Source: an uncultured Gammaproteobacteria bacterium (GTDB lineage: Bacteria > Pseudomonadota > Gammaproteobacteria > CAWCPV01). From it: a DNA stretch of 64,000 nucleotides. This document shows positions 19,114-36,918 of this stretch, piece by piece. The notes under the pieces are model-generated. The model worked only from the letters and a program-made list of their open reading frames with translations, ran no database searches and was not told the DNA's origin. The translations under genes were made by a program, and so were the position numbers. Location of the stretch: NCBI GenBank assembly GCA_963797555.1, contig CAWCPV010000003.1, positions 576,001-640,000 on the forward strand, given 5' to 3'. The first letter of the stretch is position 1. Every line of letters starts with the position of its first letter.

Positions 19114-19242
19114 GGGAGCTATTTCCTCCGGTGGAAGATGCTGTCGAGCACCATGTGCCTACTCCTTCGCCCGGCGGCCCGTCCGTGCCGCCGCCTATGG
19201 CGAGCCGGGCAGAAACGGTTTCTCGGGGTGCCCATCGCTGCG

Positions 19243-20910
19243 CTAGGGGATGATCCAATCTGTCTCGGGAACGAGCTGGTCGCTGTCGGGAGCAGCAAAA
19301 CGCACGATGTATCCCCCTTTGACGCGAAGCGCTGATTGGGTCCGAGGCTGAGGCGATGGTACATGGCGGTCGCCAAGCGTTTGCTGATCACGTCCTCGGC
19401 GGTTTCCAGGAGATAATCGCGGTGCAGATTCTCCTGCATTTCGTCGAGCTTTTCCGACATGAGAGCGCAGGCGAGATAGGCATCGGTCTGCACTCGCTCA
19501 TCGACCAGTTGCAAATTCCGTTTCTTGAACCAAGTGGAAATGAACGTATAGGCCATGTTCGCGCGCCGCTTGTCCGGAAGCTCGAACGGATACGCCATCC
19601 GCGCCAGCGCCTTCCAGGCAGGTGGGACCGGTGCCTGCTCTCCTCCTGCGAGGATCGCCGAGAAATAGGCCGCCGCGCCCGCGGCCGGCACCTCCGCCAG
19701 CTTCGCCACATCGGCCCCGCGCAGCCAAAATACCAGGACGTCTCCACTTCCCACATCGGCGATAGCTTGCCGCAGCACGGCCGCGTCGACCGTGTGCAGA
19801 ACCCGTTCTTCGAGCGGGATGACCCGACTTCCGCAGTGCCTTCTCCAGCGCCTGAGCAGCCCCGGCGGCGGCCGGGTCATCGCCGCGGATCTGGACCACC
19901 CGTTTCACGCCCGCGTGCTCACCCCGCTCACTGAGCTGATGTGCGAGTATGTGCGCTTCCAGGATGACCCCTTCGGAGAAGTAGACAGGGTAGTAGTCAG
20001 CCGGCGCGACCACCGGAAGATCCACCGTCGGAAACCAGCACGGAATACCCTGCTTCTCGCAGAATTCATGCACCGGCGCCCAGTCGCCCTGCGACAGGCC
20101 CGAGATCAGTGCGAATACCGGCTGGCGCTGGTAGTGGTCGGCGAGCTGCGCCTCCCACGTCTCGGGCGGACCGCTCAGATCCCACACCTGCAGATCCCAC
20201 GAGCGGTAGGTCTTGTACTGGGAGCCGGGGTAAGGCTGCTCGCGGAGCTTGTCGAGCCGCGTCCCCCTGTTCTTGATATCGAAGAAGGTATGCAGCACAT
20301 CGAGCATGGCCTTGCGCTTGGCCGGGTCAACGTCCGGCGTCATGACCGTGGCGAAGCGAATACTGTCCTCGGTGACGCCGGGCGACCATTGCTTCGAAAG
20401 TTGCTTCAGGTAGTCGACCAGAAGCTGCGCGTCGGAATCGCTCAGCGCGTAACGCGGCATCATCCCGTCCAGAGTGACGCCTGACGAGTCCGTGCCTTCG
20501 CGGATCGCGCGCACCAAGGTCTGGTCCGTATAGGGATCGTGCAAGCGGTTCCGGCCGAGAGCGTGGGCGAAGTCCGGACCGCGGGCGCGGTGCAGGTCCA
20601 TCGGACCGCCCGCGGTTGGCCGAGGCTGATACAGGAACCGACCGGTGATGGGCAGAATAATCCGGGTGCCCTCCACCGTGCCCAGCCCACTGCGGCGATG
20701 GCACAGGACGCACGCCGCGAAAGCGCCCGACACCACGACGCCGCCCGGGTGCGCCCCCCGCAGCGGCTCCCCCGAAGGCAACACGCCTTCGCGGTAGATA
20801 CGCTGGGCCATATACCCTCCCGCGGCGGCCGGGGCTTGAGCAGCAGCCGCACTCCAAGCGGGCGCCGCACAAGCCGTCAGCAGCGCACCGAGCAGCACCC
20901 GCACGAGCAT
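19243..20910 (-). CDS. Cytochrome c fused to a periplasmic-binding-protein-like domain (frameshifted)
   Basis: Signal peptide, CVLCH, MMPRY, WSPGVTEDSIRFATV; continues through 19119-19880 and ends FASKG/GYIVRF..DWIIP* at 19243 after two indels. Confidence 0.75.
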
Positions 20911-20968
20911 GGCCGGACCGGTCTGGGAACAGGGTGATGTGCGGTCTTATGTAACGCCGCGTATGCCG

Positions 20969-21610
20969 TCAGTTGGCCGCGAGGAACTGACGAGTTTCCT
21001 TGACCAGCTCGTCAGGCGGCACGAAGCCCTCGAGCCGCACCCAGGGCTTGCCCGGCGCCGCACGCAGAAACGTCACGGCGACGTGGTTCATCTTGTCCGT
21101 GCGGTACACATCGAATGCCTTCTGCAGCGCAACGCTCGCCTTCACCGTTCCGGTATAGAAGCTCCACTGCGGGCCGGCGTGGAACTTCTTCGCGTACTCG
21201 GTGAGCCGCGCCGGGGTGTCCTGCTCCGGGTCGATGGAGATCGAGACCATGCGCACTTTGCTGCCCTCGTCGCCGAGCCGGCTCTGGACTTGGGCGAAGG
21301 TCTGACTCAGGATGGGGCAGACAGCCGTGCAGGTGGTGAAGATGAAGTCGAGGATCACCGGCTTGCCGTCGTCGATCGCCTTGGGAAAGTCGACCTCGGC
21401 CCCGTCCGCCCGCACCAGCGTCACCTCGGGAACCGTGTAGCCGACCGTGGTCCTTTCCCAGGTGTCCGTCGCCGCCGCCGCAGGATGGTGATGGGCGTGC
21501 GGGTCCTGTGCGGTGTCGCCAACCGCAGCCCCCGAGACCGCCAGCGCAACGAGAGCACCCAGCAGCACCCCGCGGCCTGCGGATCGATTCGAGCGATTCG
21601 GCAGCTCCAT
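20969..21610 (-). CDS. SCO1/SenC family copper chaperone
   Basis: FIFTTCTAVCP (CxxxC), SIDPEQDTP, distal His (KMNH); His-rich N-terminus HAHHH. Confidence 0.93.
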   Translation of the reverse strand: MELPNRSNRSAGRGVLLGALVALAVSGAAVGDTAQDPHAHHHPAAAATDTWERTTVGYTVPEVTLVRADGAEVDFPKAIDDGKPVILDFIFTTCTAVCPILSQTFAQVQSRLGDEGSKVRMVSISIDPEQDTPARLTEYAKKFHAGPQWSFYTGTVKASVALQKAFDVYRTDKMNHVAVTFLRAAPGKPWVRLEGFVPPDELVKETRQFLAAN

Positions 21611-21622
21611 TTCCGTCTCCTG

Positions 21623-23525
21623 CTACTTGATCTTGATCGACAGGGGTTTCGTCGCGACCAGGGGGGGGCTCTGGCTGTGGTCGGTGACTTGGGCCGTGAA
21701 GCTGTAGGTGCCCGCCGTATTAGGCATGGGCACCCCCGTGATCTTTCCGGTCGTGGCGTCGAGGCTGAGCCCGGGCGGCAAGCTGCCCGCGGCCAGCGAC
21801 CACGCGTAGGGCTTTATTCCACCCTTGGCAGCCAACGCCTTGGAGTACGCCGTGCCGACAGTGCCTGCAGCGAGGGTCGAGGTGGTGATTATCAAGGGAT
21901 CGACGACCACCATGATGGAGAGCGGCTGTGTGGCTTTGCTCCCCAGCGTGTCTTTGGCCTGGACCGTGAAGCTGAACACACCGGGCGCCGTCGGCGTGCC
22001 GGAAATGGCGCCCGTCTTCGCGACGAGACTCAGCTTCGCCGGCAGCGTGCCTGAGATACGCGACCACGTGTAAGGGGGGGTGCCGCCGCTCGCCTGCAGT
22101 ATCTGCTTGTAGGCCACGCCCACGTGTGCGTTCGGGAGAGAGGTCGTGAGGATGCTCACGGGCATCGTTCCGGTGATGTCGGCATAGGCCGCGTACACGT
22201 TGATCAGACCGTATCCGTAGTTGTTGTCCGCCCCGGCCGTGCCCAGGTCCGTTGCGGTGCTCTCGAGCTCTTGCTCGAATCTCGCCCACTGTTAGGGTCG
22301 GGGACGCGCTGAGGAGCAGGGCTGCCGCTCCGGCGACGTGGGGCGCGGAGAACGATGTCCCCGAGACCCAGACATACCCTCCGCCTGGTTTCGCGGTCTT
22401 CACGCTCACGCCCGGAGCCACCGTGCTCGGGAACACGCCATTGAAACCGGGGCAGGCCGAAGTCCCTCGGCTGCTGAAGGACGCCACCGTGTTGGTGCTG
22501 TCGACGGCACCGGCCGAGAACCCATCGAGGTTGTTAGCGGGGCTGATGCTCGTCGACAGGTGCGGTCCGGAATTACCGGCGGAGAAGACCACGACGATCC
22601 CTGCAGACCTCAGCGTCTCGAAATCGCTCTGGAACGTGTTGTCGCAGGTGTTCACCCCGCTCAGCCCCCAGGAGGCATTGACGACGTCCGGAGCGTCCGT
22701 CGTGGTCGAATTCCCATCGGGGTCGAGAAGCCACTGGAATGCCTGGTGGATGATACTGAGCGTCGTGTTGCCGGAGTCGTCGAAGATCTTCGCGGCGATC
22801 CACGTCGCGTCCGGCGCCACGCCGATCGCCGTGCCCCCGGCGCTGCCGCCCACCATGACGCCCATCGTCTGTGTGCCGTGACCGATGGCATCATAGGGGG
22901 TCGGGTGAATCTTGTAGATGTCGAACGGGTCGAACCAGCTATCCGTCCCCCCGCGCCACTTGCTCTGCAGGTCCGGATGGGTGAAGTCGACGCCGGTGTC
23001 CATGTTGGCCACGACGACGCCGCCTCCCCCATCCCCGAGACTCCACACGTCGGGGGCATGAATGTCCGTGATGTTCCATTCCGGCGCCGCGGCGGCTGCC
23101 TGAGTCACTACCGGGGCGCTGACCGTCGAGTCCAGCTCGACGCTCTGGACGCCCGGGAACCTCGTCAGTGCACGTATCAGGCCCGGCTTGGCGGCGACCG
23201 CAATGCCGTTGATGATCCAAAGCGGCGTGAACCGTGCCGCCCCCCCTGCCCGCAGCAGCGCCCTGACCGGGCCCTGGGTCGCATCGCTTTTCGCCCGCAT
23301 GGCCTGGGCGATCTGCGCCCCACGCACATGCTTGTCAGGGGCCCGAAACGCCTTCGGGTCCACTCGGTCCGAAAGCGTCACGATGACCGGTATTTCATCA
23401 TTCGGACCGGCGGACTGGAGTGCTTCGGGGAGAGTCTGCGGAGTCGCGGCCTCCTGGGCGACCGAAACGGCGCCGCAAAGCACCAGAAGCAAACACCCGA
23501 CCGACGAAGCGAAAAGTCTTTTCAT
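21623..23525 (-). CDS. S8 subtilase with prodomain and C-terminal Ig-like (He_PIG-type) repeats; frameshift at ~22265
   Basis: Catalytic motifs MDTGVD, HGTQTMG, FSAGNSG, GTSFSAPHV; DNNYGYGLIN links it to ORF 21623-22198, which has two LQASGG..PYTWS..G.LP..LSL repeats. Confidence 0.88.
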
Positions 23526-23538
23526 GGTCTGGTCCCGC

Positions 23539-24033
23539 TCATTCCACGACGATGTTTTCCAGCTTGCAGTCCCCGATGACCACGGTGACCTTGCTGCCCT
23601 TCTTCACCTTCTCGAGGGCATTGGAAAACAAGATGTAGTACTGCTTGCCGACCACCGGCGGGTTTCTCACGCTCGCCCGCAGCGCGCCGACGTTGGTATC
23701 TTCCGGCGAGCCCAACGCCGACCGCGTTGCCGGGTCGAACAGGTAGGGCTTGATCCGCTGGTCGAAGAGAGGCCGTGCTTTGACGGCGTCGACCACCTGG
23801 TAGCGGAAATCCAGCATGCGGCCGCCGAACGTTGGGCGCAGAGCCACCGGCTTGATTCCCCAGGTGGCCTCGGGCGACGCGGCAGCGGTCTGAGCGGCCG
23901 ATGCCGGAGCCGGAGCCTGTTGCTGTTCCGCGGGGGCGGCCAAAGCCGGCGCCGCCACCGTCAGGGACGCGAGCGCACAAAGACCTACTACGCTCTCGAT
24001 ACGGTTCATAGCCAGGACAGTTGGGCGTCTCAC
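23539..24033 (-). CDS. Periplasmic/secreted hypothetical protein
   Basis: Signal peptide, Ala/Pro linker, MLDFRYQVVD..KA.PLFD..IKPYL, YYILFSN..VK.GSKVTVVIGD; tightly packed in the operon. Confidence 0.75.
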   Translation of the reverse strand: MRRPTVLAMNRIESVVGLCALASLTVAAPALAAPAEQQQAPAPASAAQTAAASPEATWGIKPVALRPTFGGRMLDFRYQVVDAVKARPLFDQRIKPYLFDPATRSALGSPEDTNVGALRASVRNPPVVGKQYYILFSNALEKVKKGSKVTVVIGDCKLENIVVE

Positions 24034-24116
24034 GCGGCCTTCGGTTCATCTCCCTCCCCCGGGTGTCGACCCGGGGGAGAAGAGAGTACGATGGCCCCCG
24101 ACGGCGCCGTCTCCGA

Positions 24117-25580
24117 TCAGCTTGCGGTGCCGTGCAAGGCAACGCTCAGGGTCGGCGTGGGGTTGTTGGTGGTGATGTTCAGGTTCGGCCCACCCGTGTT
24201 CCACTTGTTACCGGCCGTGCCACTGGGCGGCGCGAACCTGACGGTGAAGGTCATGCTGCCTCCTCCGGGGGCCAGGGTGGCCGGCAGCGGAACGCTGGTG
24301 GCGGTGACCGAGTACATGTTCCGGAATGCGGTGGTCCCGCCGGCAATCGTGTAGCTGGACACGAGCCCGGGTACCGTACCGGTATTGGTGACCGTCACGA
24401 CGCCTGTGGTGCAACTGCTCGTCGCCAGACAGTTGCGGGCCGAGCTCAGAACGAGCGGGGTCGGGCTCGCCCCCAGAGTCGGTGAAGCGACAGCCAGGTA
24501 CGCGAGCATGCCCCCGGGCGACAGGCCGTTGTTCGTGAGATTCAGGCGCCGGTCGAAGACCGGGATGTTGCCCAGCGCCGTCGGGGTGAGGATGGCATCC
24601 ATGGTCTTGCCCGCCGGCATCAGCACTTCATACTGCTGCTTGGGAGCGGGGACCACCGCGCCCGACGTGTCGATGGCGGACATGAAGTTCCCGTCCTCGG
24701 CAATGAGAGCCATGTCGGGCCCGAGCACCACGGGCGCCTTGGTCTCGAGGCCCGCATTCAGGAAACGCAGCAGCAGCTTGGTGCCGGGTGATCCGCCCGG
24801 CAGGGGCGCCGCGGCCCCCGTGTACGGCTGCCCATTGACGAGAAAATACTTCGGGTGGTAGTCGGACGTGCTCGTCATCGTGCCCGCCGGCCCGTAATCC
24901 CCGGTCGCAACGGCGTTGTGAAGCACCGGGTCGATCTCGCTCAGCAGCAGGGTCGTCTCGCTGTCGAACGCGCTCGACGGGTCGTCGTAGGCCCGCCCTG
25001 GGGTGGTAGGCAATACCTTGAGCACTCCATAGAGCCCCATCTGCTCCTGGACAGCCGGGTGCGTGCCGCTCTCGATCAGGTACGTTCCCGCCTTGAGGTT
25101 GTTGAAGGTGTACGTCGAGCTAACGCCCAGCGCCGTTTCCGTCGTGAAGGACCGCACCCGTTGCGTGGGGCTCGACCTGGGGCCACAGGGGCCAGTGGTC
25201 CAGCAGGGCCAACTGCCCGGCGTCAGAACAGGCGTCTGCCCGGGAATGACGACCGACACAGGCTCAATGTACAGGCCGCTCAGATCGTTCTCGACGTTGA
25301 TATTCAGCGTATCGCCCTCGACCGCCGTCAGGACCACGGGGCCCCATGGGGTTCCGGGGGCAGGCGCGGTGTAGCCGCTGTCGGTCACGTCGAAGCCCCA
25401 CATCGTGATGTCTGCGGGGGGGATGGTGGGCGCAGCCGCATTGTACGTTCCCGCGGGTATCGTGAACACGTCCGCCCTGAGGTACACATCCACCGTGGCG
25501 GCGGCTGCGTCCCCCGCCGCAACGAGCCCGAGGCATGTCGCCGCGGCAAGTCCTGCGCCGATTCTCTTCATGGTATTCAT
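24117..25580 (-). CDS. Two-domain cupredoxin (multicopper oxidase-like) subunit C, no canonical Cu ligands, with C-terminal Ig-like domain
   Basis: MWGF, GP...EGDTL.INVENDL, AGTYLIESGTHPAVQEQMGLYG, LVNGQPY, RFLNAG, IAEDG; no HxH or HCH. Confidence 0.8.
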   Translation of the reverse strand: MNTMKRIGAGLAAATCLGLVAAGDAAAATVDVYLRADVFTIPAGTYNAAAPTIPPADITMWGFDVTDSGYTAPAPGTPWGPVVLTAVEGDTLNINVENDLSGLYIEPVSVVIPGQTPVLTPGSWPCWTTGPCGPRSSPTQRVRSFTTETALGVSSTYTFNNLKAGTYLIESGTHPAVQEQMGLYGVLKVLPTTPGRAYDDPSSAFDSETTLLLSEIDPVLHNAVATGDYGPAGTMTSTSDYHPKYFLVNGQPYTGAAAPLPGGSPGTKLLLRFLNAGLETKAPVVLGPDMALIAEDGNFMSAIDTSGAVVPAPKQQYEVLMPAGKTMDAILTPTALGNIPVFDRRLNLTNNGLSPGGMLAYLAVASPTLGASPTPLVLSSARNCLATSSCTTGVVTVTNTGTVPGLVSSYTIAGGTTAFRNMYSVTATSVPLPATLAPGGGSMTFTVRFAPPSGTAGNKWNTGGPNLNITTNNPTPTLSVALHGTAS

Positions 25581-25594
25581 GGCCTGCCTCCGAT

Positions 25595-27163
25595 TCACCA
25601 GATGTGGCATGGATTGGATAGACCGGGGGCGCCCGGACACACGGCGGCTACGCCTTCGATTGGCAGCACGAGGGCCATCGTAGCCATACCACCGATGAAG
25701 ATGTCATTGGTCGTCAGCTCGCGCTCGTTGTGCGAATGCCACATGTACGAGAGCCCGCCCAACGGGTTCTTGTCGACGTGAATGGTTCCGTCCGGATTCA
25801 GGGGCGGAAGGGCCCCGGGAACCCCCAGGTACGGACTGCCGCCATACAACTGGCCGAACGCGAGCGTGCTCTCGTCAGCCAGCTCTACGGGCAGCGGCTT
25901 GTTATGGTCCGCGCACCACTCGTGGCTGGTCAGGTCGAAACCGCTCCCGTCGGGGGTGCAGGTGTGAGGGTTGATGTCCGTGGTGCCGTAAACGTCCCAC
26001 CCGAGCTTGGCTCCGGTCCAGGGTCCCCAGACGGCGTCCACCGTCTCGCCCGGCACCGACGTGGTGGTGTAGTCCGACACGCCCAGATCCGCAACGGCAG
26101 AGGCGCCCGAGGTCAGAACGGCGGTGCTCAACACTCTGCCATCGCGCGCGATGACCACGTGGTTCTGGCCGTGCGTGTGGAGGGGATGCAGGTCGGCCCC
26201 CGCGCCGACCATCCGCATCAGCACCTTCTCTCCCGGGTGCATCTGCGGCCAGCCGTTGTAAGGCTGAGTCGGAAACTGCGAGGCCACCGGGTACAACGTG
26301 CGGTCGGTAGGGTAGCCCGTCTGCAGGCTCGGCGGATTCGGAAAAGTGAGGGTGTCCGGGAAGTTCCGCCCGTTGATGAACCAGTCCGTGGGATGGCGCT
26401 GGGTCATGTCGATCTGCGTGAGCCTCGCTTGGATGGCAGGGACCGTCCTGGGGGACGCCTGGGTCGCGAAAGCCACCTTCTGGTGGATCACCGGGTCGGC
26501 GTCCGACAAGAAGAAGAGATACTCACGGTCGTAGTACGTCGACGCGTCGCCGTACGCCTGGTTCGGAATGACCGTGCAATTGGCCCCCGCGCAGACGCCG
26601 CCCACCGTCGGGCGCACGATGATGGTCCCCGCGAGCCCCATCTCGTCCTGCAGATCCGGTTGCGTCCCGCTGTAGTAGATGTAGGTTCCCGGCTGTGAGG
26701 CCGTGAATCGGTACGTCACGGTGCCGGTGGTGGTGTTCGGGGCGGCCGCGCCTATCTCACCCGTCAGGATGCCCGGGGTGCCCTGGTTGCTGCCCCCGCC
26801 TCCAACGGCCGTGCCCACAGTGGCGTTCAGGCCGGGGAACACGATCAACGTCGGGACCGGCAACTGGTTGCGGAGGTTGATGGTAACGTTCGCACCCTGA
26901 TTGACGATGACCGTCGGCCCCGGGGACTGCATCCGGTTGGGACAGGTCGTCGTGCTCGCGCACAGGGCATAGCCCCACATCCACATGCTGTCGCCGTCGC
27001 CGGTGCTGATGGCGTCGGCCTTGGCCATGAGGTTCACGGTCACGTTACCCGACGTGAGTACGCGGCCGATGATCGTCGCGTCCGCGACCTTCGGGACCAG
27101 GCCCGCGATCATAGGCAGGAGCAGGGCTCCCCACCTCGCGTTCATCTTGAATGACTTGCCCAT
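25595..27163 (-). CDS. Two-domain multicopper oxidase-like subunit B (T2/T3 His in domain 2 only)
   Basis: MWGY, PGPTVIVNQG, PGTYIYYSG..EMGL (no ligands); HPLHTHG and MWHSH..GGM in domain 2; GAGGAGG RBS. Confidence 0.85.
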   Translation of the reverse strand: MGKSFKMNARWGALLLPMIAGLVPKVADATIIGRVLTSGNVTVNLMAKADAISTGDGDSMWMWGYALCASTTTCPNRMQSPGPTVIVNQGANVTINLRNQLPVPTLIVFPGLNATVGTAVGGGGSNQGTPGILTGEIGAAAPNTTTGTVTYRFTASQPGTYIYYSGTQPDLQDEMGLAGTIIVRPTVGGVCAGANCTVIPNQAYGDASTYYDREYLFFLSDADPVIHQKVAFATQASPRTVPAIQARLTQIDMTQRHPTDWFINGRNFPDTLTFPNPPSLQTGYPTDRTLYPVASQFPTQPYNGWPQMHPGEKVLMRMVGAGADLHPLHTHGQNHVVIARDGRVLSTAVLTSGASAVADLGVSDYTTTSVPGETVDAVWGPWTGAKLGWDVYGTTDINPHTCTPDGSGFDLTSHEWCADHNKPLPVELADESTLAFGQLYGGSPYLGVPGALPPLNPDGTIHVDKNPLGGLSYMWHSHNERELTTNDIFIGGMATMALVLPIEGVAAVCPGAPGLSNPCHIW

Positions 27164-27174
27164 AGCGCTCCTCC

Positions 27175-28596
27175 TCACTTCACACTGGTGCTGGCGATAC
27201 GACGATCTCGGTCATCATGCCCCCGAAATCTTCGGCGTCGTTGCTGAGACGGTTGAGATTCGTGGTGTAGATGAAATAGGTCCCCGGTGCGACGCCGGTG
27301 GTGTCGAGCAGCACGTCCACCCCTTCCCCTCCCCCGAGGGTGACGGAGGCTCGTCGCATACGAGGTGTTCACCCCCGTCGGACCGCGCAGGAGCTGCGCG
27401 CCCTGCCCCACGATGCGCATCGGGATGCCCAGAACCCGGAGCGTGGAGAAGTCCACCGTGTTCAGGCTGGACAGATGAATCAGCACGCGCTGACCCGCCG
27501 CGATCGTGGCCGGCTGCCGGGTCCCGGCGACGATGGTCATGGGGATCGCGGGCATCGGCTGGGACGGGTTGCCGTTCTGGTTCATGATCGGGTCCGGGTT
27601 GACCGTGTCCGGATAGCCCCTTCCATTGAGCAGGAGGTAGGTGTCGTCCATATCGCTGAAGCTGATCTTGTTGTAGCTGCCGTCCGCGTTGTGGAAGACC
27701 GGGTCGAAGCCCGTCTCCTGAAGGAAGTACATGACGTTGTACCCGGTGGTGCCGCACAGATTGAGGTTCGGCGTCGGACAGTCGTCATAGGCGAACGTGC
27801 TGTACGTCATGCCGTTTATCACGTCCACGACGAAAGTCCCGTCCTGGGCGGGAAGGATGTACAGATTTCCCAGCATGCCCATCTGCATGTGCTCGGCGGC
27901 CTCCACGTGGCAGTGCCACATGTAGGTGCCGGGGAACTCGTTCCGGTAGAAGTAGGTGAGGCTGCTCCCCAGGTTGATGCCGAAGGACGCCGTCGGCTCG
28001 CCGTCGAACTGGGAGGCGGCGTTCGGGAAGCCGTGGTAATGGACCGTATGAGGGTCGAAGAGATCCGGGCGCTCGCGGAAGCCCGTGTTGGTGAGCGTAA
28101 GGTACAAGTCCTGCCCTTCCTTGGCGAACAGTGTGGGCGCGGAGAAATTGGCGCCTCCCAGCGGATATCCGGACGAATCGGTCGGATTGCCTCGGACCTC
28201 GATCTCGTTTTGCGCGACATTGGTAACGTCGGAGAAGCCGAAGATGTAGATGTCGTTCCCGTCCGCCATGTTGATGTGGCCGTCGCCGCAGGTGATGGCT
28301 CGGCACACCACGGCGGGGTCCGTGGTCGCCCCCGAGGGCTGGCCGGTAACCGGGTCGATCTGCACCTTGCAGTTATCGAAGGCGGGAGCGCCCGGGTCCT
28401 GGCAGTTGGGGTCGGTCGAATTGGATGGGGTCTTGGGGTCGAACGTGCAGACCCCCCCGCATGCGCCGGTATCCGTGTTCTGCGTCAACAGCGGGTCAGG
28501 ACACTGGTACTGGAGGGCCGCACTCACCGGCATCGCCGCAGCGAGCAGCAAGAGGCCGGGCACACCTACCAAGAATCTGTTCCTCTGAATCGTCAT
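27175..28596 (-). CDS. Two-domain multicopper oxidase-like subunit A (T1 plus T2/T3 ligands in domain 1); frameshift at ~27350
   Basis: HTVHYHG and YMWHCHVEAAEHMQMGM; the alternate frame gives a paralogous C-terminus PGTYFIYTTNL..FGGMMTEIVVSPAPV* ending at 27180. Confidence 0.88.
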   Translation of the reverse strand: MTIQRNRFLVGVPGLLLLAAAMPVSAALQYQCPDPLLTQNTDTGACGGVCTFDPKTPSNSTDPNCQDPGAPAFDNCKVQIDPVTGQPSGATTDPAVVCRAITCGDGHINMADGNDIYIFGFSDVTNVAQNEIEVRGNPTDSSGYPLGGANFSAPTLFAKEGQDLYLTLTNTGFRERPDLFDPHTVHYHGFPNAASQFDGEPTASFGINLGSSLTYFYRNEFPGTYMWHCHVEAAEHMQMGMLGNLYILPAQDGTFVVDVINGMTYSTFAYDDCPTPNLNLCGTTGYNVMYFLQETGFDPVFHNADGSYNKISFSDMDDTYLLLNGRGYPDTVNPDPIMNQNGNPSQPMPAIPMTIVAGTRQPATIAAGQRVLIHLSSLNTVDFSTLRVLGIPMRIVGQGAQLLRGPTGVNTSYATSLRHPRGRGRGGRAARHHRRRTGDLFHLHHESQPSQQRRRRFRGHDDRDRRIASTSVK

Positions 28597-28615
28597 GGTC
28601 TCCTCCTTCGGGTGG

Positions 28616-31600
28616 TCAGGCCCGCCGTGCCGGCGGGCCTGACTCTCCCGTTGCCTCTGCTGCTAGGGGGTTGGTCGACGTGCCCGTGACCGTCACGGAG
28701 ATGGCCGGCGGTGGCGTCGCTGCTCCGAACGGGTCGATGAGCACTGTCGCAGTCTTCGGACCCGCAAGCACCGCGGTCGTCGGCGCGAAGGTGACGGTGA
28801 CCGTCACGTTCCCTCCCGCCGGGACCGTCCTGTTGATGGGCCCCGAGGTGAACTGGTTGGGGCTCAGTCCAGGTCCCGCCGGTCTCGTCACCGTGAAGGC
28901 CACCGTGCCGCTCGTGTTGTTGTGCACGTTCACCAGCATTGACGTGCACGACGCGGTTGCTGCGCAGTTTCTGGGTATTCGGGAACGCGAGGCTGAGCGG
29001 CGACACGGTCAGGGGCGGACCCGCCATACGGGGCGCCGCCGTCTGGTCCGCACCGATGTCGATCGGCGCAGCCCGCGTGTCCTGGTCGAAGTCGAGGGTC
29101 TGCAGCGGCGGATACTGGATCGCGCCGCCCGCCCTCACCGCGGGCGAGAAAGTATCTCCCGGGATGTGGTGGTGTCGGGCCACGAGACCGTTCGGCGTGA
29201 AGGTGGCCACGACGAAGTTGCCCAGCGCCGCTCCCTTCGACGTCGCCGTATAGGTGTTGAAGTAGCTCTGAGGAACAGCGGATCCGTCCCGGTGAGGTTG
29301 GTCGGGTGGCGGTGGCGCCATCGGCGGCCGTGAGGATGGAGTACGTGGGGCTCATCGTCTACACCGGCTCGCCCCGGTGACCGTACCATGAGATCGCAGT
29401 AAAAGTTCGCGCCGAGCGTCGGCCCAGGCGCCGGGGCCGCGGGACAGTGGTTGTCGCTGCAAGGAGGGCACCTAGGCCATTGTTGGCGGTGGCGCACCAG
29501 TAGAACGAGCGGTTCTGCCAGACAATGTCGTCCACCAGGACCGGGTTGGAGATTCTGACACTTCGGGTGCTGTAGTTGGTAGTGCAACTCGAGCCAGCGC
29601 GATCACGCGAGCTCGGTGCTGTTGAGCCGTGGCCGTGATTCCACCGACCTGCGGTGATCGAGTTCGTCAGTCCGCCGGCAACCTCTGTAGGCGGACATTG
29701 CGCACCCGGCAGTGCCGGGGGCTCCGGGCAAGGGCCACCGAAGGCATCGGAGCTGGTGGCAGTGCTGGCGTTGTTGCGCGACGGTATTGCTGACAGCGAA
29801 TATGTTCACCGTGTCGTCGAACGCCATCCCGCCGCCCTGGTCGGCACTCGAGTTGTTGACGACCATGTTGTTGAAGATCTGGATCTGGTACCACTGGCTC
29901 GGATCGGCCGGATTGTTCGCCACGTCCAGACCGTTGACCTTGAGGGTCCGGATACCGCCGCCGTCGTCCCCGCCCTTGTTGCCCTGGATGAGGTTGCGGT
30001 TGACTACGACCGGGCCGGCGCCGTAGCTCAGCAAATCCGGCGGGACCGGCAAGTCGCCGGCGATGTGGAGCCCGCCTCCTTCGTCGAAGGACTCGTTGGA
30101 AACGAAGATGTTGTCCTGGATCAGGGACGTGTTGCCGGTCGTCGGACTCTTGAGGCTCAGGCCGAAGTGCCCGAGGCCTCCGCCGTACTGGGCCGAGAAG
30201 TTGGCGCAGACCATGTTGTGCGTGACCTGGTAGCCGTCGGAGCCCGCGTACAGCGCCATGCCGCCGCCGCCGCTGAACAGGCTGCCGTTCTTCGAGATGC
30301 GGTTGTGGTCGATGACCAGGTCCGCATTGAAGTTGCTCCCCGTCAGGTTGCCCGCCGTCCCGGCCAGAGCGCCCTCGCCGACGCGGATGCCGCCGCCGAT
30401 GCCGCCCTGGTTGGCGAAGACCTCGTTGTTGCTGATCGTCAGGTTGGGTGCGAAGCCGTTCACCAGGATGCCGCCCCCGGCCTCGGTCGCGCCGGTGATG
30501 GTCAGCCCGTCGATCTGGGCGTGCGCCCCGGGGCTGGAGAAGTCATTGCCGGTCGTGCAGCCGGCGGTGAAATCACATCCCGCCACCAGGATGCCGGCCC
30601 CTTGCTCCAGGGTGAAGTCCGAGGCCTGGCCGGGGACGATGCCGATGGCAGTGCTCGCGATCAAGCTCTGGACGGAGCCCGGATTAGTGAGGTCGCGAAC
30701 TGCCAGTCCTTGAGCGCGAAGTTGCCGAGCGCGGCGGTGCCGTCCAGGATGGTGACGGCGGCGCCGAGCCCCTGCAGGGTGATCGGCTTCCACAAGTTGA
30801 CATTCTCCTGGTAGCGGCCGACGCCCACCATGTTGTCCGGAGTCAGCACAACGATGGCGCCATTTTTCGCGGCGTCGATGGCGGGTTGGACTACCCCGCA
30901 CGCGATGCCGACGCAATTCGCGGCCGGGGGATCGACGACGAGAACGTCACAGGCGCTGCTGTACCCGCCGGGGAGACAGGAGACCGCACCAGCGCTCACC
31001 GCGTGCAGGGTGACCCCCACGGTCGAGGAGAGGCCGTTGTCCGCGGTGACCACCAGCTCGCCCGAGAGGCCGCCGGGGACGGTTGCCGTGATGGCGCCGT
31101 CGGCCCAGCCGGTGACCGCGATCGGCGTGCCGCCGACGGTCACGGTGCCGCTGCCTTGCGCTGCCCCGAACCCATGCCCCGGGACGGCGGTGATGGTGAT
31201 GCCCATACCCGTCGCCGGGATGATCACGTCACTCACCTGCTGGATCTCCGGCGTGCCGGCGACATAACTGCAGTTGACCGGTACGGGGTTCGTCACGAAG
31301 GCCGAAACCGGCAGCACGATGGTGTCGATGAACGTGGTCCGGCCGGGATAGAACTCCCAGTTCTCCCGGATCACTTCCTGGCTGTACGCCGGGTTGAAGA
31401 ACGGGTCGGTGATCCACTGGCCCGGGTCGGAGAGCGGGAGTTCGTGGATCGGACCCGGATCGTTCGGGGCGATGGTGTACATCTGCAGCACCAAGCCGAC
31501 GGGAATCGGCGGCGCGATGTCGTAGTTCGCCGGGACCAAGCCGTCGAAATGGCCCCACTGGTCGGTGTAGAACCGGGCGACCTCCGTCCCCTTCCAGTCC

Positions 31601-34574
31601 TTGATGGCGACCGGCAGGTAGGGCACCGCGAGGTTGCCGCTGGCGTTGGGGCTGTCCGGCCTGAACTCGAGCGCCAAGTCGTTCCAGACCGTACCCCAGA
31701 TGCGGGCCGCCTTGGGGACGAACGTGAACAGGTTGAAGTCGGTGGTGCCGTCGTCGCCGGGGTTCAGCGAGACTTCCTTCATGTTGCAGCCGGCGGCCTG
31801 TAAGCCCGGTACCCAGGGACCCAGGTCGCTCACGCTGGTGTCGGTCTCCACCATCTGGTCCGGGAACAGCGTGTGGTACTGCGGCACGTCGTAAAGCGGG
31901 CCCACGCAGTCCGGCAGCTCCTTCAGGAACGGGATCTTCGGATCCCCGAACTCGATGTTGCGGTCGCCCCACGAGACGACCTTGTAACCCGCCGGCGGGA
32001 CCACCTCCACGATGTAGGGGCCGGGGGCGATGGGGGTATGAGCGTCATCGCCCATGTCCTCGAACGTGTACGCGCCGTCGAAACGCCCGGGCCGGGTCTG
32101 ATCCCACTTGTGGAAGGTCTCGGCGCAGCTCGGGATGGCATACCCGTTGACTATCTCGTTTCCGGGGCCAGTTTCACCCCAGGCGGCGTTGTTCCACTTG
32201 CCGACGCAGTCCGTGGGCTGGTGGTCGTCCCAGCTATCGGACGTCGTAGTGAGCGGGAAACCAGCCGCGCCCTCGTCCGGGTCGATCGCCCAGCATTTGC
32301 CTTGGGGAGTGGCTCCCGCGTCAATGCCGTCCTGGGTGCAGGCGCTGCAGTTGACGTCGTCGCAATACTGCTGCCCCCGGTGAAGATGGACGGTGACCCT
32401 GGGAATTCCCGGCTCCCAGCCGTCGATCGCGCTGACGTGGGGGTCTTCCTCGGTGCGGGTGGTGGCATAGTTGACCTGTCCGCGGATGCCGCCGTTTTGA
32501 CAGTCAGTGGCGTCACCCGTGGCGCAGCCGCTCACGTCGTAATCGTGCTGGCCGAAGTCGATCCGAGCCGTCATGTCCTGGAAGAGCTGGAACGCCTCGG
32601 TCACCGCGGTGCTCCGCTCTGTCCGATATTGCCTTCCACCGGGACTCGACCCGGCGGGCTGCAGTTGGGGGTTGATCCCCGTTCCCGCGAACGCGCCGCT
32701 GGTGGGCAGGTTGCCGCCGTCGTCCACCACCGCGGTGATCCCGGTGGGCTTGAAGCGCGGCAGCCCGACCTCGGCCACCAGGTAACGCCACCAGGTGAAG
32801 TACTGGTCGACGGTGTAGCCGCCGTCCGGGCCAGTGGTGGCGTTCGCATACATCGAGCCGTCGCTGAAGCGCAGGTTGACGGGGACGTTGGGGATCCCGA
32901 TGCCTTCTGTGCTCTGGCGGTATCCGTCCTGGTTATTGTCCTGGAACACCGTCCCGGTGACGGTGGCGAACCAGCCGTAGACCGATACCGGTCCCATGGC
33001 AATCGTCGGCGTGGACGCGTCGCAGGTGATGGTCCGGAAGTCGATGATGGCGTTGATCGGCTTGTCCCACATGACGAGCTGATAGGTGCCCGCCGGCACC
33101 CCGGCGATGCTGAACTGGCCCGTGTTGGGGTCGGCCGCCGCCGTGTACACCTGCTCGTCGTTTCCGGACAGGTTGTTCAGGCCCACGTAGGCATTGGCCA
33201 CCGGAAGCCCGGGGCTCAGCCCGGGCGAGAGCGGAGGATGAGCGTCGTGGGCGTACACCACCTGCCCGGTGATGTTGCATACCGAGGCACCCAGTGTGGA
33301 CAGCGTATTCACATTGTTATGCACGAAGCCGTAGAACACGAGCCAGTTGAGCTGCCCCAGGGCGATGTTGTAGCGGGGCTCGGTGGCGCGCACCCAGGCG
33401 TCGTTTTGCCGGGTTCCCTCCAGCGTGGCGGTGAGCAGCATGTCGTGACAGTCCGAGTCCGAATTGCAGGGGGTTCCCGAGCCCGGCACCACCGGCTCGA
33501 TGGCGTACTTGTTCTCCGACATGTAGCGGATCACGGCCTCGCCGGCGGCCAGGTCGGTCAGCGTATAGGGATCCTTGCAGTTGGCGTCGTAGTACCCCGT
33601 CGGGTAATCGGAGGGAGCCCCCCCGCAGGTGCGGATGATCCCGTCCCCCAGGTAGTCGACGACCGGCAGACCGTCGGCATCGTATTGGAATATCGGCTGC
33701 TGCTCCGGAGGCAGCGGGTTGCCGCTCGCGTCGGCAGGCACGTTGAGGGCGATGCACGCCGGCTGGGTGCATTCGTAGGCGTATTTGTAAGTCGTCCCGA
33801 GGGGGTAGGTGAACTGGTCCTGCTGCAAAGCGCCGGCCACGTCGCTCACGAGGAGCTGGAAATTCGATAGCCCGTGCTCTGCGGGCTGGTCGTAGGCGCC
33901 GTTGATCGAGTCGTTGTCCTCGAAGACCAGCACCGTGATCTGGGCCAGGGGCTGCGGGAAGGGGTGGACCACCACGGTGGCGGTGGTCTGGCCGGCGGCG
34001 ATGTCGCGCCCGTTCATGCTGGTAGCCGGTCTGCAGGTTCGGGATGGTGCAGTCGGCGACGGTATCGCTGCAGGTGTGCCATGGCAGCACGGACAGGACG
34101 TAATTCTTCGTCGAATCGTAGCCCGGACAATTGCCGGCACCGATGGTCACCGACGCCTCGGCCGTGTCCGTGGTCGCCCCCGCATCCGGGCTGGTGTCGC
34201 CGACGCACACGGTCGGCGCGTGGCTGTGGTGGATGTTGACGGAGAGCGTGTAGCTCGGGTTGACGGCGCCCGGCGTCGAATCGAACGGCGCGTTCGGGCT
34301 CGGGGTGCCCGGGTAATGGTACTGGCACGCCCCCGGCCGGTCCCGCCCAGGGGCCGGTAGCGTCCGGAGCGGTCTTCTTGATCCCGTACGAGTTGTCCAG
34401 CTCGAGCAGCCAGCGGAACCCGTTGGTGATGGGATTACCCGCGTCGTCGTTCACGTTGACGGCGATGTCCGCGGCGGCCGGGCCGGCCATCAGGAGCCCC
34501 AACAGGACGACCAGGGTCGTCCACCAGTGGCTTGCCGCTGTTCCGAGAGATCTGTAAGATGCTTTAGCGCGCAT
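28616..34574 (-). CDS. Giant (~2000 aa) secreted protein with SdrD-B/carboxypeptidase-regulatory-like, IPT/TIG, beta-helix and terminal Ig-like domains; several frameshifts
   Basis: GGAGGAG RBS and signal peptide at 34574; continuous coding style across ORFs 34014-34586, 33317-34210, 30661-34140, 29603-30916, 29135-29587, 28593-29321 and 28616-28939; GTVFQDNNQDG, GFGAAQGSGTVTVGG, GGG-N beta-helix repeats. Confidence 0.75.
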
Positions 34575-35050: not shown

Positions 35051-35067
35051 AGCAAATGCCGGGCCAA
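35051..35067 (-). promoter_or_regulatory. Sigma54 (-24/-12) promoter for the oxidase cluster
   Basis: Minus strand TTGGCCCGGCATTTGCT = TGGC-N7-TTGC, exact spacing; divergent from a GAFTGA-type activator. Confidence 0.85.
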
Positions 35068-35190: not shown

Positions 35191-36918
35191 ATGCCCTGGA
35201 TCTCTCGGCTGAGCCGTTTGCAGCGAAAACTCCTGGCGGTGGTCCTGGCCATGGTGGTGGTGCCGATGCTGGTGGCCGGGGTGCTGTCCGCCTACTGGGT
35301 GTCGCATCGCTTCGAGCGCTCACGAGAGCGCTGGATCCGCACCGCGGCCGAGATCGATGAAGACTCCCTGCAAGCCTCGCGGCGCAATGGGCAGCTGTTC
35401 GCCGAGGTGCTGGCCGACCTGTGGCGACAGGACATGGCGGCGCGGCCCATGGAACGCTTCGCGGTGCCCCCGGAGCTGCGCCCCATGATGGAACAGCTCG
35501 GCATCAGCCTGATCCAGGTCTACACGGTGCAGCGACAGCTCGCCTACTCGTCGCCGCCTGCGCAGATGGTGAGTCCGTGGGCGCCCGGACAGACTCAGGC
35601 CATGCTCAAGCTGAGGTCCGGGCAGCAGGCCCTGCTCGCGACGGTTGCCATCCGGCCGGTGCCGCGCCGCGGGCAGACTCGCTACTACCTGGTCGCCGGC
35701 ACCCTGCTGGATGGAGCCTATCTGGCTCGCCTGAGCCAGCGGAGCGGACTCGATGCCCGCCTGTTCTACCCGGACGGTCCTCAGGAGCAGACGTTTCACG
35801 ACGCCGCCGGAGCGACCGCGATCGAGCTGCCTGCCGAGGCCTTCGAGCGCTTCAAGACAAGGGAGGGCTATTACAGCGAACGCGCGGAGGGCGGTGCCTA
35901 CCGGGGCCTCTACACCCCCCTGCTGGATCCGGCGGGCCGGGTCGAGGCAGTGCTATTCAGCGGCCTGAAACGCCACGGGTCGAACGAGGTCGTCAGTCCC
36001 CTGAAGCTATCACTGGCCATCGTGCTGTTCGGCTTGCTCATCGGAGCGGTGACCCGGCTGGCGCTGACCCGTCTACTGGTAAAACCCATTGAGCGGCTGC
36101 GCAACGGCGTCTTGCAGCTCGCGGCGCAAGACTTCTGCGTGACGCTGCCCGACAGCTCGAACGACGAGCTGGGCGACCTCGCGCGCTCCTTCAACGCCAT
36201 GGCGGCGCGGTTGCGGGAGGCGCGGGACGAAGAGCACCGGCAGTTCCAGATGGACAAGCTCACCGCCTTGGGCGAGCTTTGCTTGGCGCTGGCGCACGAG
36301 ATTCGTAACCCTATTTCGGTCATCAATACCGCCTGCTCGTTGCTCGAAGCCACCCGTCAGGATCCGGACAAGCAGGCCGGTCTGGCCCAGATGGTCCGCG
36401 AGGAGACCGGACGCCTGAACCGGTTGTTGAAGGACTTCCAGCAACTGTCGCCCTCCCGCCGCCCACAGATCTCGACCTTCGACCCGGTGCAGCCCCTCGA
36501 TCGGGCGATTCGCCTGGCGCTCGCGGCCCGCGACGACATTCGCGTGGAACGCCACATCCATCACGGCGGGACCACGGTCAACGCCGATGCGGAGCTCATG
36601 CAGCAGGCATGGAGCAACCTGCTGAGCAACGCCTTGGAGGCTATCGGCGATCGGGCTGGAAGCCTGCGAGTGACGACGCTCGTGGAACGGGGCGAGGTCG
36701 TGGTGGCCCTGGAAGATACCGGACCCGGAATACCGGCGGAGCTGATCCCGCGGCTCTTCGAGCCGTTCTTCACCACCAAGGAGCGAGGGACCGGGCTCGG
36801 TCTCACGCTGGCGCACAGGCTGGTCGAGGCCAACGGGGGCCGCATCGAGCTGCAGGCCGCGCAAGGAAGTGGAGCCAGATTCGCTATGCGTTTTCCGGTT
36901 GACGTGACGGAGGAGTGA
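35191..36918 (+). CDS. Membrane sensor histidine kinase (HAMP, HisKA, HATPase)
   Basis: Two TMs, DELGDLARSFNAM, LAHEIRNP, NLLSNA, DTGPGIP, PFFTTK..GTGLGL. Confidence 0.95.
   Translation: MPWISRLSRLQRKLLAVVLAMVVVPMLVAGVLSAYWVSHRFERSRERWIRTAAEIDEDSLQASRRNGQLFAEVLADLWRQDMAARPMERFAVPPELRPMMEQLGISLIQVYTVQRQLAYSSPPAQMVSPWAPGQTQAMLKLRSGQQALLATVAIRPVPRRGQTRYYLVAGTLLDGAYLARLSQRSGLDARLFYPDGPQEQTFHDAAGATAIELPAEAFERFKTREGYYSERAEGGAYRGLYTPLLDPAGRVEAVLFSGLKRHGSNEVVSPLKLSLAIVLFGLLIGAVTRLALTRLLVKPIERLRNGVLQLAAQDFCVTLPDSSNDELGDLARSFNAMAARLREARDEEHRQFQMDKLTALGELCLALAHEIRNPISVINTACSLLEATRQDPDKQAGLAQMVREETGRLNRLLKDFQQLSPSRRPQISTFDPVQPLDRAIRLALAARDDIRVERHIHHGGTTVNADAELMQQAWSNLLSNALEAIGDRAGSLRVTTLVERGEVVVALEDTGPGIPAELIPRLFEPFFTTKERGTGLGLTLAHRLVEANGGRIELQAAQGSGARFAMRFPVDVTEE

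Follow-up and report, generated by a model that had tools for sequence, protein, structure and literature searches.

Three neighbouring genes in the 64,000-nucleotide stretch of uncultured gammaproteobacterial DNA analysed here (the window) encode two-domain cupredoxin paralogues, termed A, B and C, which probably work together as one heteromeric multicopper oxidase, a ring of six cupredoxin domains formed by three two-domain chains with a single catalytic centre. To our knowledge, all characterised multicopper oxidases draw the whole catalytic centre from one gene product, either as a single chain or as identical chains. The evidence leans towards this widespread family being an obligate heterotrimer of paralogues, the first among multicopper oxidases, with one composite site, a ring in the order B-A-C and a link to a giant surface protein. 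If this is true, the division of the eight cluster His between two paralogues, together with a third that has no ligands, represents a new quaternary design, in which a three-site homotrimer would have become a one-site pseudo-trimer, the solution seen in ceruloplasmin, before any gene fusion took place.

Three two-domain cupredoxin paralogues

The initial annotation had recognised in this region three paralogues with two cupredoxin domains each, and open reading frames for all three were located at the positions concerned (Table 1). Profile comparison with hhalign relates every pair over both domains: B and C with a probability of 100 (E 1.3e-51), A and B with 99.8 (E 3.7e-29) and A and C with 99.4 (E 7.5e-22). 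The likely starts of B and C are Met6 (27163) and Met21 (25580), each of which falls on a conserved Met column of the orthologue alignment. The cupredoxin fold of the multicopper oxidase superfamily is evident from the Pfam matches of A and B, the models of B and C and the related profiles of all three proteins. A and B match the Pfam families Cu-oxidase_3 and Cu-oxidase_2, the Cu-oxidase_2 score of B being 19.2 bits, below the cut-off of 20.4, and the Pfam search gave no match for C. When the profiles of A and B were used, 3g5w and 2zwn ranked first with the ligand motifs aligned. The model of C (pLDDT 90.2) aligns with 2zwn and 3g5w across about 350 columns, and that of B (pLDDT 78.3), which is poor in the loops 241-257 and 406-432 (core numbering), finds its best matches in 2zwn (TM on target 0.73) and 3g5w (0.70). 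One chain consists of two cupredoxin domains, as in enzymes of the 2zwn/3g5w kind. The cores of A, B and C amount to about 1,190 residues in the window, and the smallest orthologous trio has at least about 1,024.

Table 1. Positions of the A, B and C genes, their ligand motifs and the neighbouring genes in the window
Feature	Position	Strand	Description
Subunit A gene	27180-28596	minus	Two cupredoxin domains; domain 1 with type-1 site and one half-set of trinuclear-cluster ligands
A motif HTVHYHG (residues 183-189)	28030-28050	minus	H183 type-1; H186, H188 cluster; aligns with PHTIHWHG of 3g5w
A motif WHCHVEAAEHMQMGM (residues 227-241)	27874-27918	minus	H228, C229, H230, H236, M241
Frameshift in A	27345-27348	minus	Four bases against one orthologue codon; one base extra
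Subunit B gene	25595-27163	minus	Two cupredoxin domains; domain 2 with the other four cluster His
B motif HPLHTHG (residues 331-337)	26168-26188	minus	H331, H334, H336
B motif WHSH (residues 480-483)	25730-25741	minus	H481, S482, H483
Subunit C gene	24117-25580	minus	Two ligand-free cupredoxin domains and a C-terminal choice-of-anchor-D-like domain
C choice-of-anchor-D-like domain	about 24222-24434	minus	C-terminal part of C
Giant secreted protein	28597-34210	minus	SdrD-B-like, carboxypeptidase-regulatory-like, TIG, beta-helix and choice-of-anchor-D/ASH-like parts
Small secreted protein, 164 aa	23539-24033	minus	Conserved, no known family; matches in 47 loci
Subtilisin-like S8 peptidase	21623-23525	minus	He_PIG Ig-like repeats; frameshifted
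SCO1/SenC-type copper chaperone	20969-21610	minus	Downstream of A-B-C
MofC-like protein	19119-20910	minus	One CxxCH cytochrome c and a periplasmic-binding-protein domain; frameshifted; downstream of A-B-C
Divergent two-component pair	35191-38318	plus	CHASE4-HAMP histidine kinase and sigma-54-dependent response regulator

Copper ligands are divided between A and B

In the initial annotation, the copper ligands of A lay in domain 1 only, making up a full type-1 site and four cluster His; those of B lay in domain 2 only and comprised the other four His with no Cys; and C had none. The translations bear out this reading, and the motif coordinates of A and B fit them, with Ser482 of B occupying the position of the type-1 Cys. 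No ligand motifs of this sort are present in the window translations of domain 2 of A, domain 1 of B or any part of C. The type-1 site, made of two His, a Cys and an axial Met, is complete only in domain 1 of A (H183, C229, H236 and M241) and is absent from B and from C. Eight His in four HxH motifs are supplied only by A and B jointly, H186/H188 and H228/H230 coming from A and H334/H336 and H481/H483 from B. The consequence of this division is that no single subunit can make a working O2-reducing site, which has to be assembled at the contact of two different ones, and that an active homotrimer of any one subunit is impossible. Because the half-sets reside on two paralogues and the third has none, a ring can hold at most one site.

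The partition is kept in 78-81 orthologous loci belonging to at least ten phyla. In the orthologue alignment of A, 75 of 79 rows retain H183, H186 and H188 and the remaining four have gaps there; H228 and C229 are present in 77, H230 likewise in 77, H236 in 78 and M241 in all 79. H331, H334, H336, H481 and H483 of B are kept in each of its 82 rows. The alignment of C has 11 invariant and 36 nearly invariant columns, none of which holds a His or a Cys, in agreement with the ligand-free character assigned to C. This conservation of the motifs is far above chance. Among further homologues of A, both HxxHxHG and HCHx5Hx4M occur in all 119 and a second-domain His motif in none of them; among those of B, HxxHxHG occurs in 120 of 120, WHSHxE in 119 and the HCH motif in none of the 120. 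No full ligand set was encountered among these homologues, and the partition holds in all 119 of A.

A predicted interface between A and B

Prediction of the A+B complex with ESMFold2 gave ipSAE values of 0.76, 0.75 and 0.75, a score that may partly reflect the solved homotrimeric two-domain oxidases, against 0.01 for the best of three controls. The mark applied to ipSAE is reached by 58 of 80 solved complexes, compared with 2 of 110 mismatched pairs. The model, which contains no copper, has 204-206 contacts, of which at least 93% are shared between runs, and a partner pLDDT of at least 76. Six of the eight ligand His are included in its interface list, A H228 and B H481 being absent from the listed contacts, and H188 and H186 of A are among those paired across the chains, with H334 and H336 of B, respectively. 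The suggested contact between domain 1 of A and domain 2 of B is modelled as a confident interface at which ligand His of the two chains are opposed.

Gene order, co-diversification and fusions

The family is widespread in bacteria, with about 3,900 protein clusters for A and for B each, and its carriers comprise Geobacter-like bacteria, Anaeromyxobacter, Sideroxydans/Gallionellaceae, Rhodoferax, Acidobacteria, Planctomycetes and Verrucomicrobia. Current annotation names these proteins generically as 'multicopper oxidase' or, by automatic transfer, as 'manganese oxidase'. Both A and B are present in all of the 80 loci compared, which represent many phyla, and the order A-B-C was found in 76 of the 76 loci that reach past B, so that no A lacking B and C came to light. 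A search started from A was positive in two of 400 genomes, both of them with B and C adjacent, and 60 genomes of the same class contained one true orthologue (in G010) and one weak match (in G011, E 8.2e-11).

In a tree built with FastTree, whose support values are local only, A, B and C are each monophyletic (support 100, 99 and 99). B and C each hold a subclade of 16 rows that comes from the identical 16 loci, and the A part of the tree also has a 16-row subclade (support 99; member loci unlisted). Mean column identity is 24% in C, the least conserved of the three, compared with 36% and 38% in the other two.

Gene fusions provide a further view of the system. Fusions of a B-like with a C-like protein were found in 3 of 150 listed representatives, two of which retain the B ligands. 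In these fusions B comes first and C follows, separated by linkers of about 135 to 490 residues. This order conflicts with a ring that places A between domain 2 of B and domain 1 of C, and only the long linkers reconcile it with the ring B-A-C. An A-B-C fusion was found neither among the seven longer B-type matches, which are weak (E 3.6e-14 and weaker) and carry Y_Y_Y/Big_13 domains, nor among the 150 representatives; rather than six cupredoxin domains in one polypeptide, there are three genes in 80 of 80 loci. Of the 80 loci, 27 have the giant module as a gene of its own, 9 as an N-terminal fusion with A and 35 as a C-terminal extension of C; one more locus combines the fusion to C with a separate copy, and in 8 the module was not seen. 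The heterotrimer with a single site between A domain 1 and B domain 2, as originally proposed, is supported on these grounds, its A/B part by the ligand partition, the synteny and the model, and none of the three observations named beforehand as refuting it was made. C would be the third member of the ring, as suggested by the synteny, the congruent trees, the natural B-C fusions and the fusion of the giant protein to A or to C according to lineage.

Another explanation, which we regard as unlikely but as the strongest of the competitors, is that A and B alone constitute the oxidase, as a heterodimer or some other A/B oligomer, and that C lies outside the cupredoxin ring as a separate ligand-free protein with a structural, anchoring or substrate-binding role in the same surface machine. 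The modelled interface is indeed one between A and B only, and both the low conservation of C and its anchor-like C-terminal domains or giant module would suit such a role. C nevertheless retains the full two-domain fold, is present in every locus reaching past B, co-diversifies with B and is fused to it in some relatives. Known two-domain oxidases, like nitrite reductases, also form rings of three chains, and a ring in which A or B served as the third chain would leave an orphan half-site.

Frameshifts in the assembled sequence

Residues 1-416 of A correspond to positions 27349-28596 and are followed, in another frame, by a conserved C-terminal piece of 54 residues (27183-27344) with 86% identity to the nearest orthologue; the 473-residue open reading frame of A ends in a false tail because of the frameshift after residue 416. 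The giant protein occupies four frames in this assembly and single open reading frames of about 1700-1900 residues elsewhere, and the peptidase and cytochrome genes are each split. If the frameshift in A is real, this copy is dead, and the system of the window might be viewed as a decaying pseudogene cluster, the shifts in the genes for A, the giant protein, the peptidase and the MofC-like protein then being genuine. Against this view, to which we assign a low probability, the frames are open and orthologue-like on either side of every shift, the right frames contain no premature stops, and unrelated genes are hit, with a shift roughly once per 1.5 kb, in a genome of 20 contigs that is 84.6% complete. 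This pattern fits the indel errors of an uncorrected assembly, and the frameshift in A is probably assembly noise. In three soil-metagenome contig sets with 5-6% of the sampled words, no contig covers positions 27180-27795.

Proposed mechanism and function

That A, B and C are not an oxidase, no cluster being assembled, A serving as a type-1-only electron carrier and B and C being degenerate relatives, would accord with the weak or missing Pfam matches of B and C but is very improbable, since the eight cluster His, four each in A and B, show little or no variation from phylum to phylum, a constancy that would be difficult to account for if no cluster were formed, and the ligand His are opposed in the A+B model.

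In the favoured heteromeric oxidase, a substrate would reduce the type-1 copper of A domain 1 (H183, C229, H236 and M241), and its electrons would pass on through the H228-C229-H230 triad to the trinuclear copper cluster. This cluster, predicted to be held by H186, H188, H228 and H230 of A domain 1 and by H334, H336, H481 and H483 of B domain 2, would reduce O2 to water. Having lost all ligands, C may close the ring between domain 2 of A and domain 1 of B. The binding of copper, a 1:1:1 stoichiometry and the ring order B-A-C are likewise predicted parts of this scheme. The three proteins are predicted to be exported and to act outside the cytoplasm together with the giant beta-helix/Ig-like surface protein. 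Copper is probably loaded by the SCO1-type chaperone, and the oxidase may have the MofC-like cytochrome c as its redox partner. The substrate may be a metal ion or a cytochrome, and the functions given here to the neighbouring genes are likewise presumptive.

The family, which is large and unstudied and has cytochrome and copper-chaperone genes as neighbours, may represent a machine, so far unrecognised, with which iron- and manganese-cycling bacteria reduce O2 or oxidise metals outside the cell. Surveys of metal cycling score each gene as an independent oxidase, and this would be wrong if only the trio is active.

Comparison with known copper proteins

In both sequence and fold, A, B and C come closest to 2zwn, the metagenome laccase mgLAC, and 3g5w, the blue copper oxidase of Nitrosomonas europaea, two-domain oxidases that we take to be of 'type C'. 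Shared with them are the type-1 site in domain 1, the motifs PHTxHxHG and HCHx5H in domain 1 and HxxHxHG in domain 2. Each of these two enzymes is a trimer of identical chains, with the two half-sets in every chain and three active sites, whereas here the half-sets reside on two paralogues and the third is without ligands, as are domain 2 of A and domain 1 of B.

In oxidases of the ceruloplasmin type, a ring of six cupredoxin domains has a single trinuclear cluster at one interface and the other interfaces are degenerate; six-domain oxidases are one polypeptide, with type-1 sites in even-numbered domains. The proposed ring resembles the ceruloplasmin type in its six cupredoxin domains and single cluster and differs from it in being made of three chains and in having its sole type-1 site in domain 1 of A. 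The idea that the trio is an intermediate between two-domain and six-domain multicopper oxidases therefore holds as an analogy but fails for an ancestor, as a type-1 site in domain 1 indicates a parallel to ceruloplasmin and not its precursor. By this analogy, the A-B-C system is best seen as a parallel route to the six-domain oxidases. If the heterotrimer is real, it shows, in present-day bacteria, how triplicated genes can divide their labour without being fused, it exemplifies the step usually postulated between homotrimeric two-domain and six-domain oxidases, and the evolutionary scheme becomes testable with living proteins.

Copper nitrite reductases, also trimeric rings of two-domain cupredoxins with the catalytic copper between chains, give strong fold matches here. 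Their type-2 site is formed by three His between chains, and they do not have HxH pairs in each of the two domains. Identity with these reductases was rejected on the grounds that the motifs here, four HxH pairs (4+4 His), correspond in alignment to those of the oxidases 3g5w and 2zwn and that the NCBIfam model scored 20-22 bits compared with a cut-off of 296.

In two-domain oxidases the cluster is sited where domain 1 of a chain adjoins domain 2 of its neighbour, as is stated for 9cck (PMC11761707). The trimer of this oxidase, Nmar_1354, is termed an 'alpha-alpha-alpha-prime heterotrimer' in the account of the structure, and its chains are described there as one gene product with or without a proteolysed extra domain, not as paralogues that divide the ligands (PMC11761707). 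In the literature searched for heteromeric or heterotrimeric multicopper oxidases, only this proteolytic case and unrelated papers were found. The 'three multicopper oxidase genes' of PMC6400856 are an unrelated gene count.

An earlier description of the split A-B-C layout was not found in the literature searched beyond a one-sentence remark on "three tandem MCO genes" of Sideroxydans (He et al., 2017, PMC5566968). According to that paper, the Sideroxydans cluster also includes a gene for a cytochrome c with a periplasmic-binding domain and an SCO1/SenC gene, so that the ES-1 genes match the layout of the window by description. The single paragraph devoted to these genes considers the proteins not homologous to known metal oxidoreductases, infers no function and mentions neither a ligand partition nor a heteromer (PMC5566968). 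Two loci from Sideroxydans metagenome-assembled genomes (L069 and L075) carry A-B-C. OmpB of Geobacter sulfurreducens and MofA of Leptothrix discophora are secreted copper oxidase-like proteins encoded beside MofC-like cytochrome and SCO1 genes, in clusters that occur in iron- and manganese-cycling bacteria, as described in the corresponding part of the same paper (PMC5566968). They are single large proteins, unlike the A-B-C trio, and the Sideroxydans tandem genes are reported to have no homology to OmpB/MofA (He et al., PMC5566968).

Neighbouring genes

Among the fetched loci, an SCO1 gene was found in six and a MofC-like gene in three, counts that weigh little either way because the flanks often end inside the giant gene. 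A scan of the window for sigma-54 promoters gave 4 matches, compared with 4.9 expected; the match at 35052-35066 is well placed, yet it does not amount to statistical evidence. For the 164-residue secreted protein, the nearest clusters in the Protein Atlas are named 'hypothetical', and one of them carries the automatic name 'Copper(I)-binding protein', which serves purely as a lead.

Partition of the copper ligands

The division of copper ligands among the tandem minus-strand ORFs A, B and C is, as judged from their alignments, conserved and not a local accident. The initial annotation had assigned a type-1 site and four cluster histidines to domain 1 of A, the other four to domain 2 of B and none to C; the coordinates of its four ligand motifs agree with the translations of A and B, and the split is kept in orthologues. 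A scan with B of one genome per species returned 230 stretches encoding B relatives, and 80 loci were kept. Their sources (taxa as recorded) comprise Geobacteraceae, Myxococcales, Anaeromyxobacter, Desulfobacterales and Nitrospiraceae, together with Verrucomicrobiota, Kiritimatiellia, Lentisphaerae, Planctomycetes, Acidobacteria, Methylomirabilota and Gamma-, Beta- and Alphaproteobacteria, including Sideroxydans, Gallionellaceae, Rhodoferax and Paraburkholderia. Conservation was counted after aligning the window copies with their orthologues (79 rows for A, 82 for B). H183, H186 and H188 of A are kept in 75/79 rows (the remaining 4 are gaps), H228 and C229 in 77, H230 also in 77, H236 in 78 and M241 in all 79, and H331, H334, H336, H481 and H483 of B are kept in 82/82. 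Ser482 of B is invariant in a 60-row alignment, and the invariant and nearly invariant columns of C hold neither histidine nor cysteine. Among further A homologues, HxxHxHG and HCHx5Hx4M occurred in 119/119 and any domain-2 histidine motif in 0/119; among further B homologues, HxxHxHG was present in 120/120, WHSHxE in 119/120 and HCH in 0/120. At E 1e-20 or better, the A family contains 3,950 clusters and the B family at least 3,687 among the 8,000 candidates scored. Other histidines are also conserved: His425 of B (80/82) and the above His331, both with no assigned copper, and the DPxxH-motif histidine of the inter-domain linker, found in 79/79 rows of A and 81/82 of B and represented in C by 32 His and 43 Asn of 75.

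Features of the A-B-C cluster and its surroundings in the window
Feature	Coordinates	Strand	Basis or remarks
A ORF	27175-28596	minus	ORF translation
B ORF	25595-27178	minus	ORF translation
C ORF	24117-25640	minus	ORF translation
A 54-residue C-terminal piece	27183-27344, stop 27180-27182	minus	conserved, other frame
A His302 (DPxxH)	~27691-27693		inter-domain linker
B His232 (DPxxH)	~26483-26485		inter-domain linker
C His241 (DPxxH)	~24918-24920		inter-domain linker
Conserved secreted protein, 164 aa	23539-24033		no family; downstream of C; matches in 47 related loci
S8 peptidase with Ig-like repeats			downstream of C, beside the 164-aa protein gene
SCO1/SenC copper chaperone			next downstream after S8 peptidase
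[quoted passage not shown]
CHASE4 histidine kinase and sigma-54-dependent response regulator			upstream of operon, divergent
Sigma-54-like -24/-12 element, TGGCCCGGCATTTGC	35052-35066	minus	intergenic, upstream of operon
IS110-family transposase gene	13170-14390		DEDD_Tnp_IS110 and Transposase_20

Reading frames and gene starts

Starts and frames were corrected from conserved columns and the translation of other frames. The printed tail of the A ORF lies in the wrong frame, and the true frame past residue 416 restores the 54 conserved residues; at the point of the shift (27345-27348), four bases stand where orthologues hold one codon. By the same alignments, translation of B probably starts at Met6 (27163) and that of C at Met21 (25580). 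The gene of the giant secreted protein upstream of A (28597-34210) is split over four frames and those of the S8 peptidase and MofC-like cytochrome contain one shift each, so that frameshifts occur about once per 1.5 kb across 19119-34210, in unrelated genes, with conserved sequence on both sides of each. Because other genes are split in the same way and the genome is in 20 contigs and 84.6% complete, these shifts look like indel noise of the assembly; among public reads sought over the site in A, none crossed 27345-27348.

Paralogy and shared descent

A, B and C are paralogues sharing one two-domain fold. Profile-profile comparison matched B with C (probability 100, E 1.3e-51), A with B (99.8, E 3.7e-29) and A with C (99.4, E 7.5e-22), each time across both domains. 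Pfam detected both Cu-oxidase_3 and Cu-oxidase_2 in A and B, the B match to Cu-oxidase_2 falling slightly below cut-off, and no family in C; by NCBIfam, C matches copper oxidases weakly and has a choice-of-anchor-D-like domain at its C-terminus. The top solved structures for the A and B profiles alike were 3g5w, the blue copper oxidase of Nitrosomonas europaea, and 2zwn, a metagenome two-domain laccase; the domain-1 motifs of A align to PHTIHWHG and YHCHVNVNEH..GM, and the domain-2 motif of B to HAIHTHG. For C, the AlphaFold model (pLDDT 90.2, pTM 0.89) aligns across ~350 columns with 2zwn, 3g5w and copper nitrite reductases; for B, the model (pLDDT 78.3) best matches 2zwn (TM-score 0.73 on target).

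A is followed by B in 80/80 loci and B by C in all 76 that reach past B, the other four stopping at most ~430 bases from B. A search starting from A was positive in 2/400 other genomes of the phylum, both with B and C adjoining in the same order. Occurrence of A without B and C, which would have spoken against an obligate assembly, was thus seen neither in these 76 loci nor in the two additional genomes. A FastTree phylogeny was built from 30 sequences each of A, B and C, taken as alternate rows of their 60-row alignments (90/180 rows), and resolved each paralogue as one clade with local support of 100, 99 and 99; a 16-row subclade of B and one of C comprise the identical 16 loci, and A likewise holds a 16-row subclade. 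The three clades, the subclade shared by B and C and the constant synteny point to a single ancient triplication, after which A-B-C was inherited as a unit. The 60 genomes nearest to that of the window share only its class, every one belonging to a different family, and contain one true orthologue of the cluster; its rarity there, yet wide spread across phyla, suggests patchy inheritance or transfer.

A probable composite site between A and B

A composite site formed by domain 1 of A and domain 2 of B is very probable, being well supported by conservation and consistent with a model of the complex. In ESMFold2, A was entered as two unaltered pieces, each with its alignment, and B as the scored partner. 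The ipSAE values were 0.76, 0.75 and 0.75, and the highest among the three controls was 0.01. Contacts numbered 204-206, the runs agreed to 93% or better and the partner had a pLDDT of 76 or more. The tool's mark, which is reached by 58/80 solved complexes and 2/110 mismatched pairs, applies here only roughly; since homotrimeric relatives with this type of interface are already solved, the pass is read as likeness to them and not as proof of binding. The predicted interface sets domain 2 of B against domain 1 and a few domain-2 loops of A and lists the ligands H186, H188 and H230 of A and H334, H336 and H483 of B (full-length numbering); A H228 and B H481 are absent from its listed contacts. 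The lowest-error cross-chain pairs include A H188-B H334 and A H186-B H336. The conserved LGGGE loop in the C-terminal piece of A contacts P332, H334 and H483 of B in the model.

C as the proposed third member

Cupredoxin-domain rings of this superfamily are closed by three two-domain chains. A passage of the paper on 9cck (PMC11761707) states this arrangement for 9cck. With domain 2 of B on domain 1 of A, the third chain would give its domain 1 to domain 2 of A and its domain 2 to domain 1 of B. This chain would be C, in the order B-A-C, because A or B in its place would leave an orphan half-site and C has no ligands to orphan. The full A-B-C heterotrimer is the best reading and a likely one, in which the place of C is deduced; the presence of C in every locus extending past B and the congruence of the C and B trees speak for its membership. 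Among the 150 representatives listed from the whole-library protein search, three distant relatives (P0276, P0283 and P0343) join a B-like to a C-like unit through a long linker in a single protein. Two of the three retain HPFHPH and WHSH in the B part; the C part is free of His motifs. The order of these fusions, B before C, argues against a simple B-A-C ring, and their linkers (~135 to 490 residues) permit such a ring, though they do not prove it. Two other proteins differ in architecture: in P0289 (B-like, 899 aa) the cupredoxin domains are separated by an inserted HpiC1-cyclase-like domain (E 4e-63) and an HCH motif lies near residue 792, and P0352 has two tandem ligand-free C-like units with a type I dockerin domain after them.

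The attachment of the giant secreted SdrD-B/beta-helix/ASH-like module varies between lineages (loci L009, L055 and others). It is encoded separately in 27/80 loci; an in-frame fusion to the N-terminus of A occurs in nine and a fusion to the C-terminus of C in 35, one more locus has both the latter fusion and a separate copy, and in eight the module was unseen. Since the same module is joined to either A or C, A and C are suggested to belong to one assembly. The giant proteins carry signal peptides and lack haem motifs; the beta-helix part of L009 gave a borderline match to NosD (periplasmic copper-binding; 23.3 bits vs a cut-off of 23.6).

Comparison with known oxidases

The A-B-C system would work in the same way as the two-domain oxidases 2zwn and 3g5w. 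Unlike in these, no chain holds both half-sets, so one defining feature of that family is lacking. Like ceruloplasmin, the proposed ring would hold one cluster per six domains, but it consists of three polypeptides with the sole type-1 site in a domain 1. The system is for this reason better regarded as a parallel solution than as the possible intermediate between 2-domain and 6-domain enzymes first envisaged. A literature search for heteromeric or heterotrimeric multicopper oxidases, with subscription journals and supplements outside its scope, returned only the Nmar_1354 trimer, a proteolytic alpha-alpha-alpha-prime assembly according to a passage of PMC11761707, one paragraph of He et al. 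(2017; PMC5566968) and unrelated papers. Homologues of A and B carry generic database names ('FtsP/CotA-like multicopper oxidase', 'multicopper oxidase domain-containing protein') or the automatic name 'manganese oxidase', and A-B-C represents a widespread, unstudied variation on a known enzyme type.

Neighbouring genes and proposed role

According to He et al. (2017), MofC-like proteins with exactly the domain pair found here adjoin OmpB/MofA-type oxidases; the same paper notes three tandem multicopper oxidase genes in Sideroxydans, and the cluster of the window is taken to be the system described there. A-B-C may act as an exported oxidase that reduces O2; its electrons would come, as a guess, from a metal ion or the MofC-like cytochrome. 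One Atlas neighbour of the 164-aa protein is automatically named 'Copper(I)-binding protein'. The sigma-54-like element adjoins the gene of a sigma-54 activator (36915-38318), and such matches are no more frequent across the window than chance would give. An IS110-family transposase gene also lies in the window.
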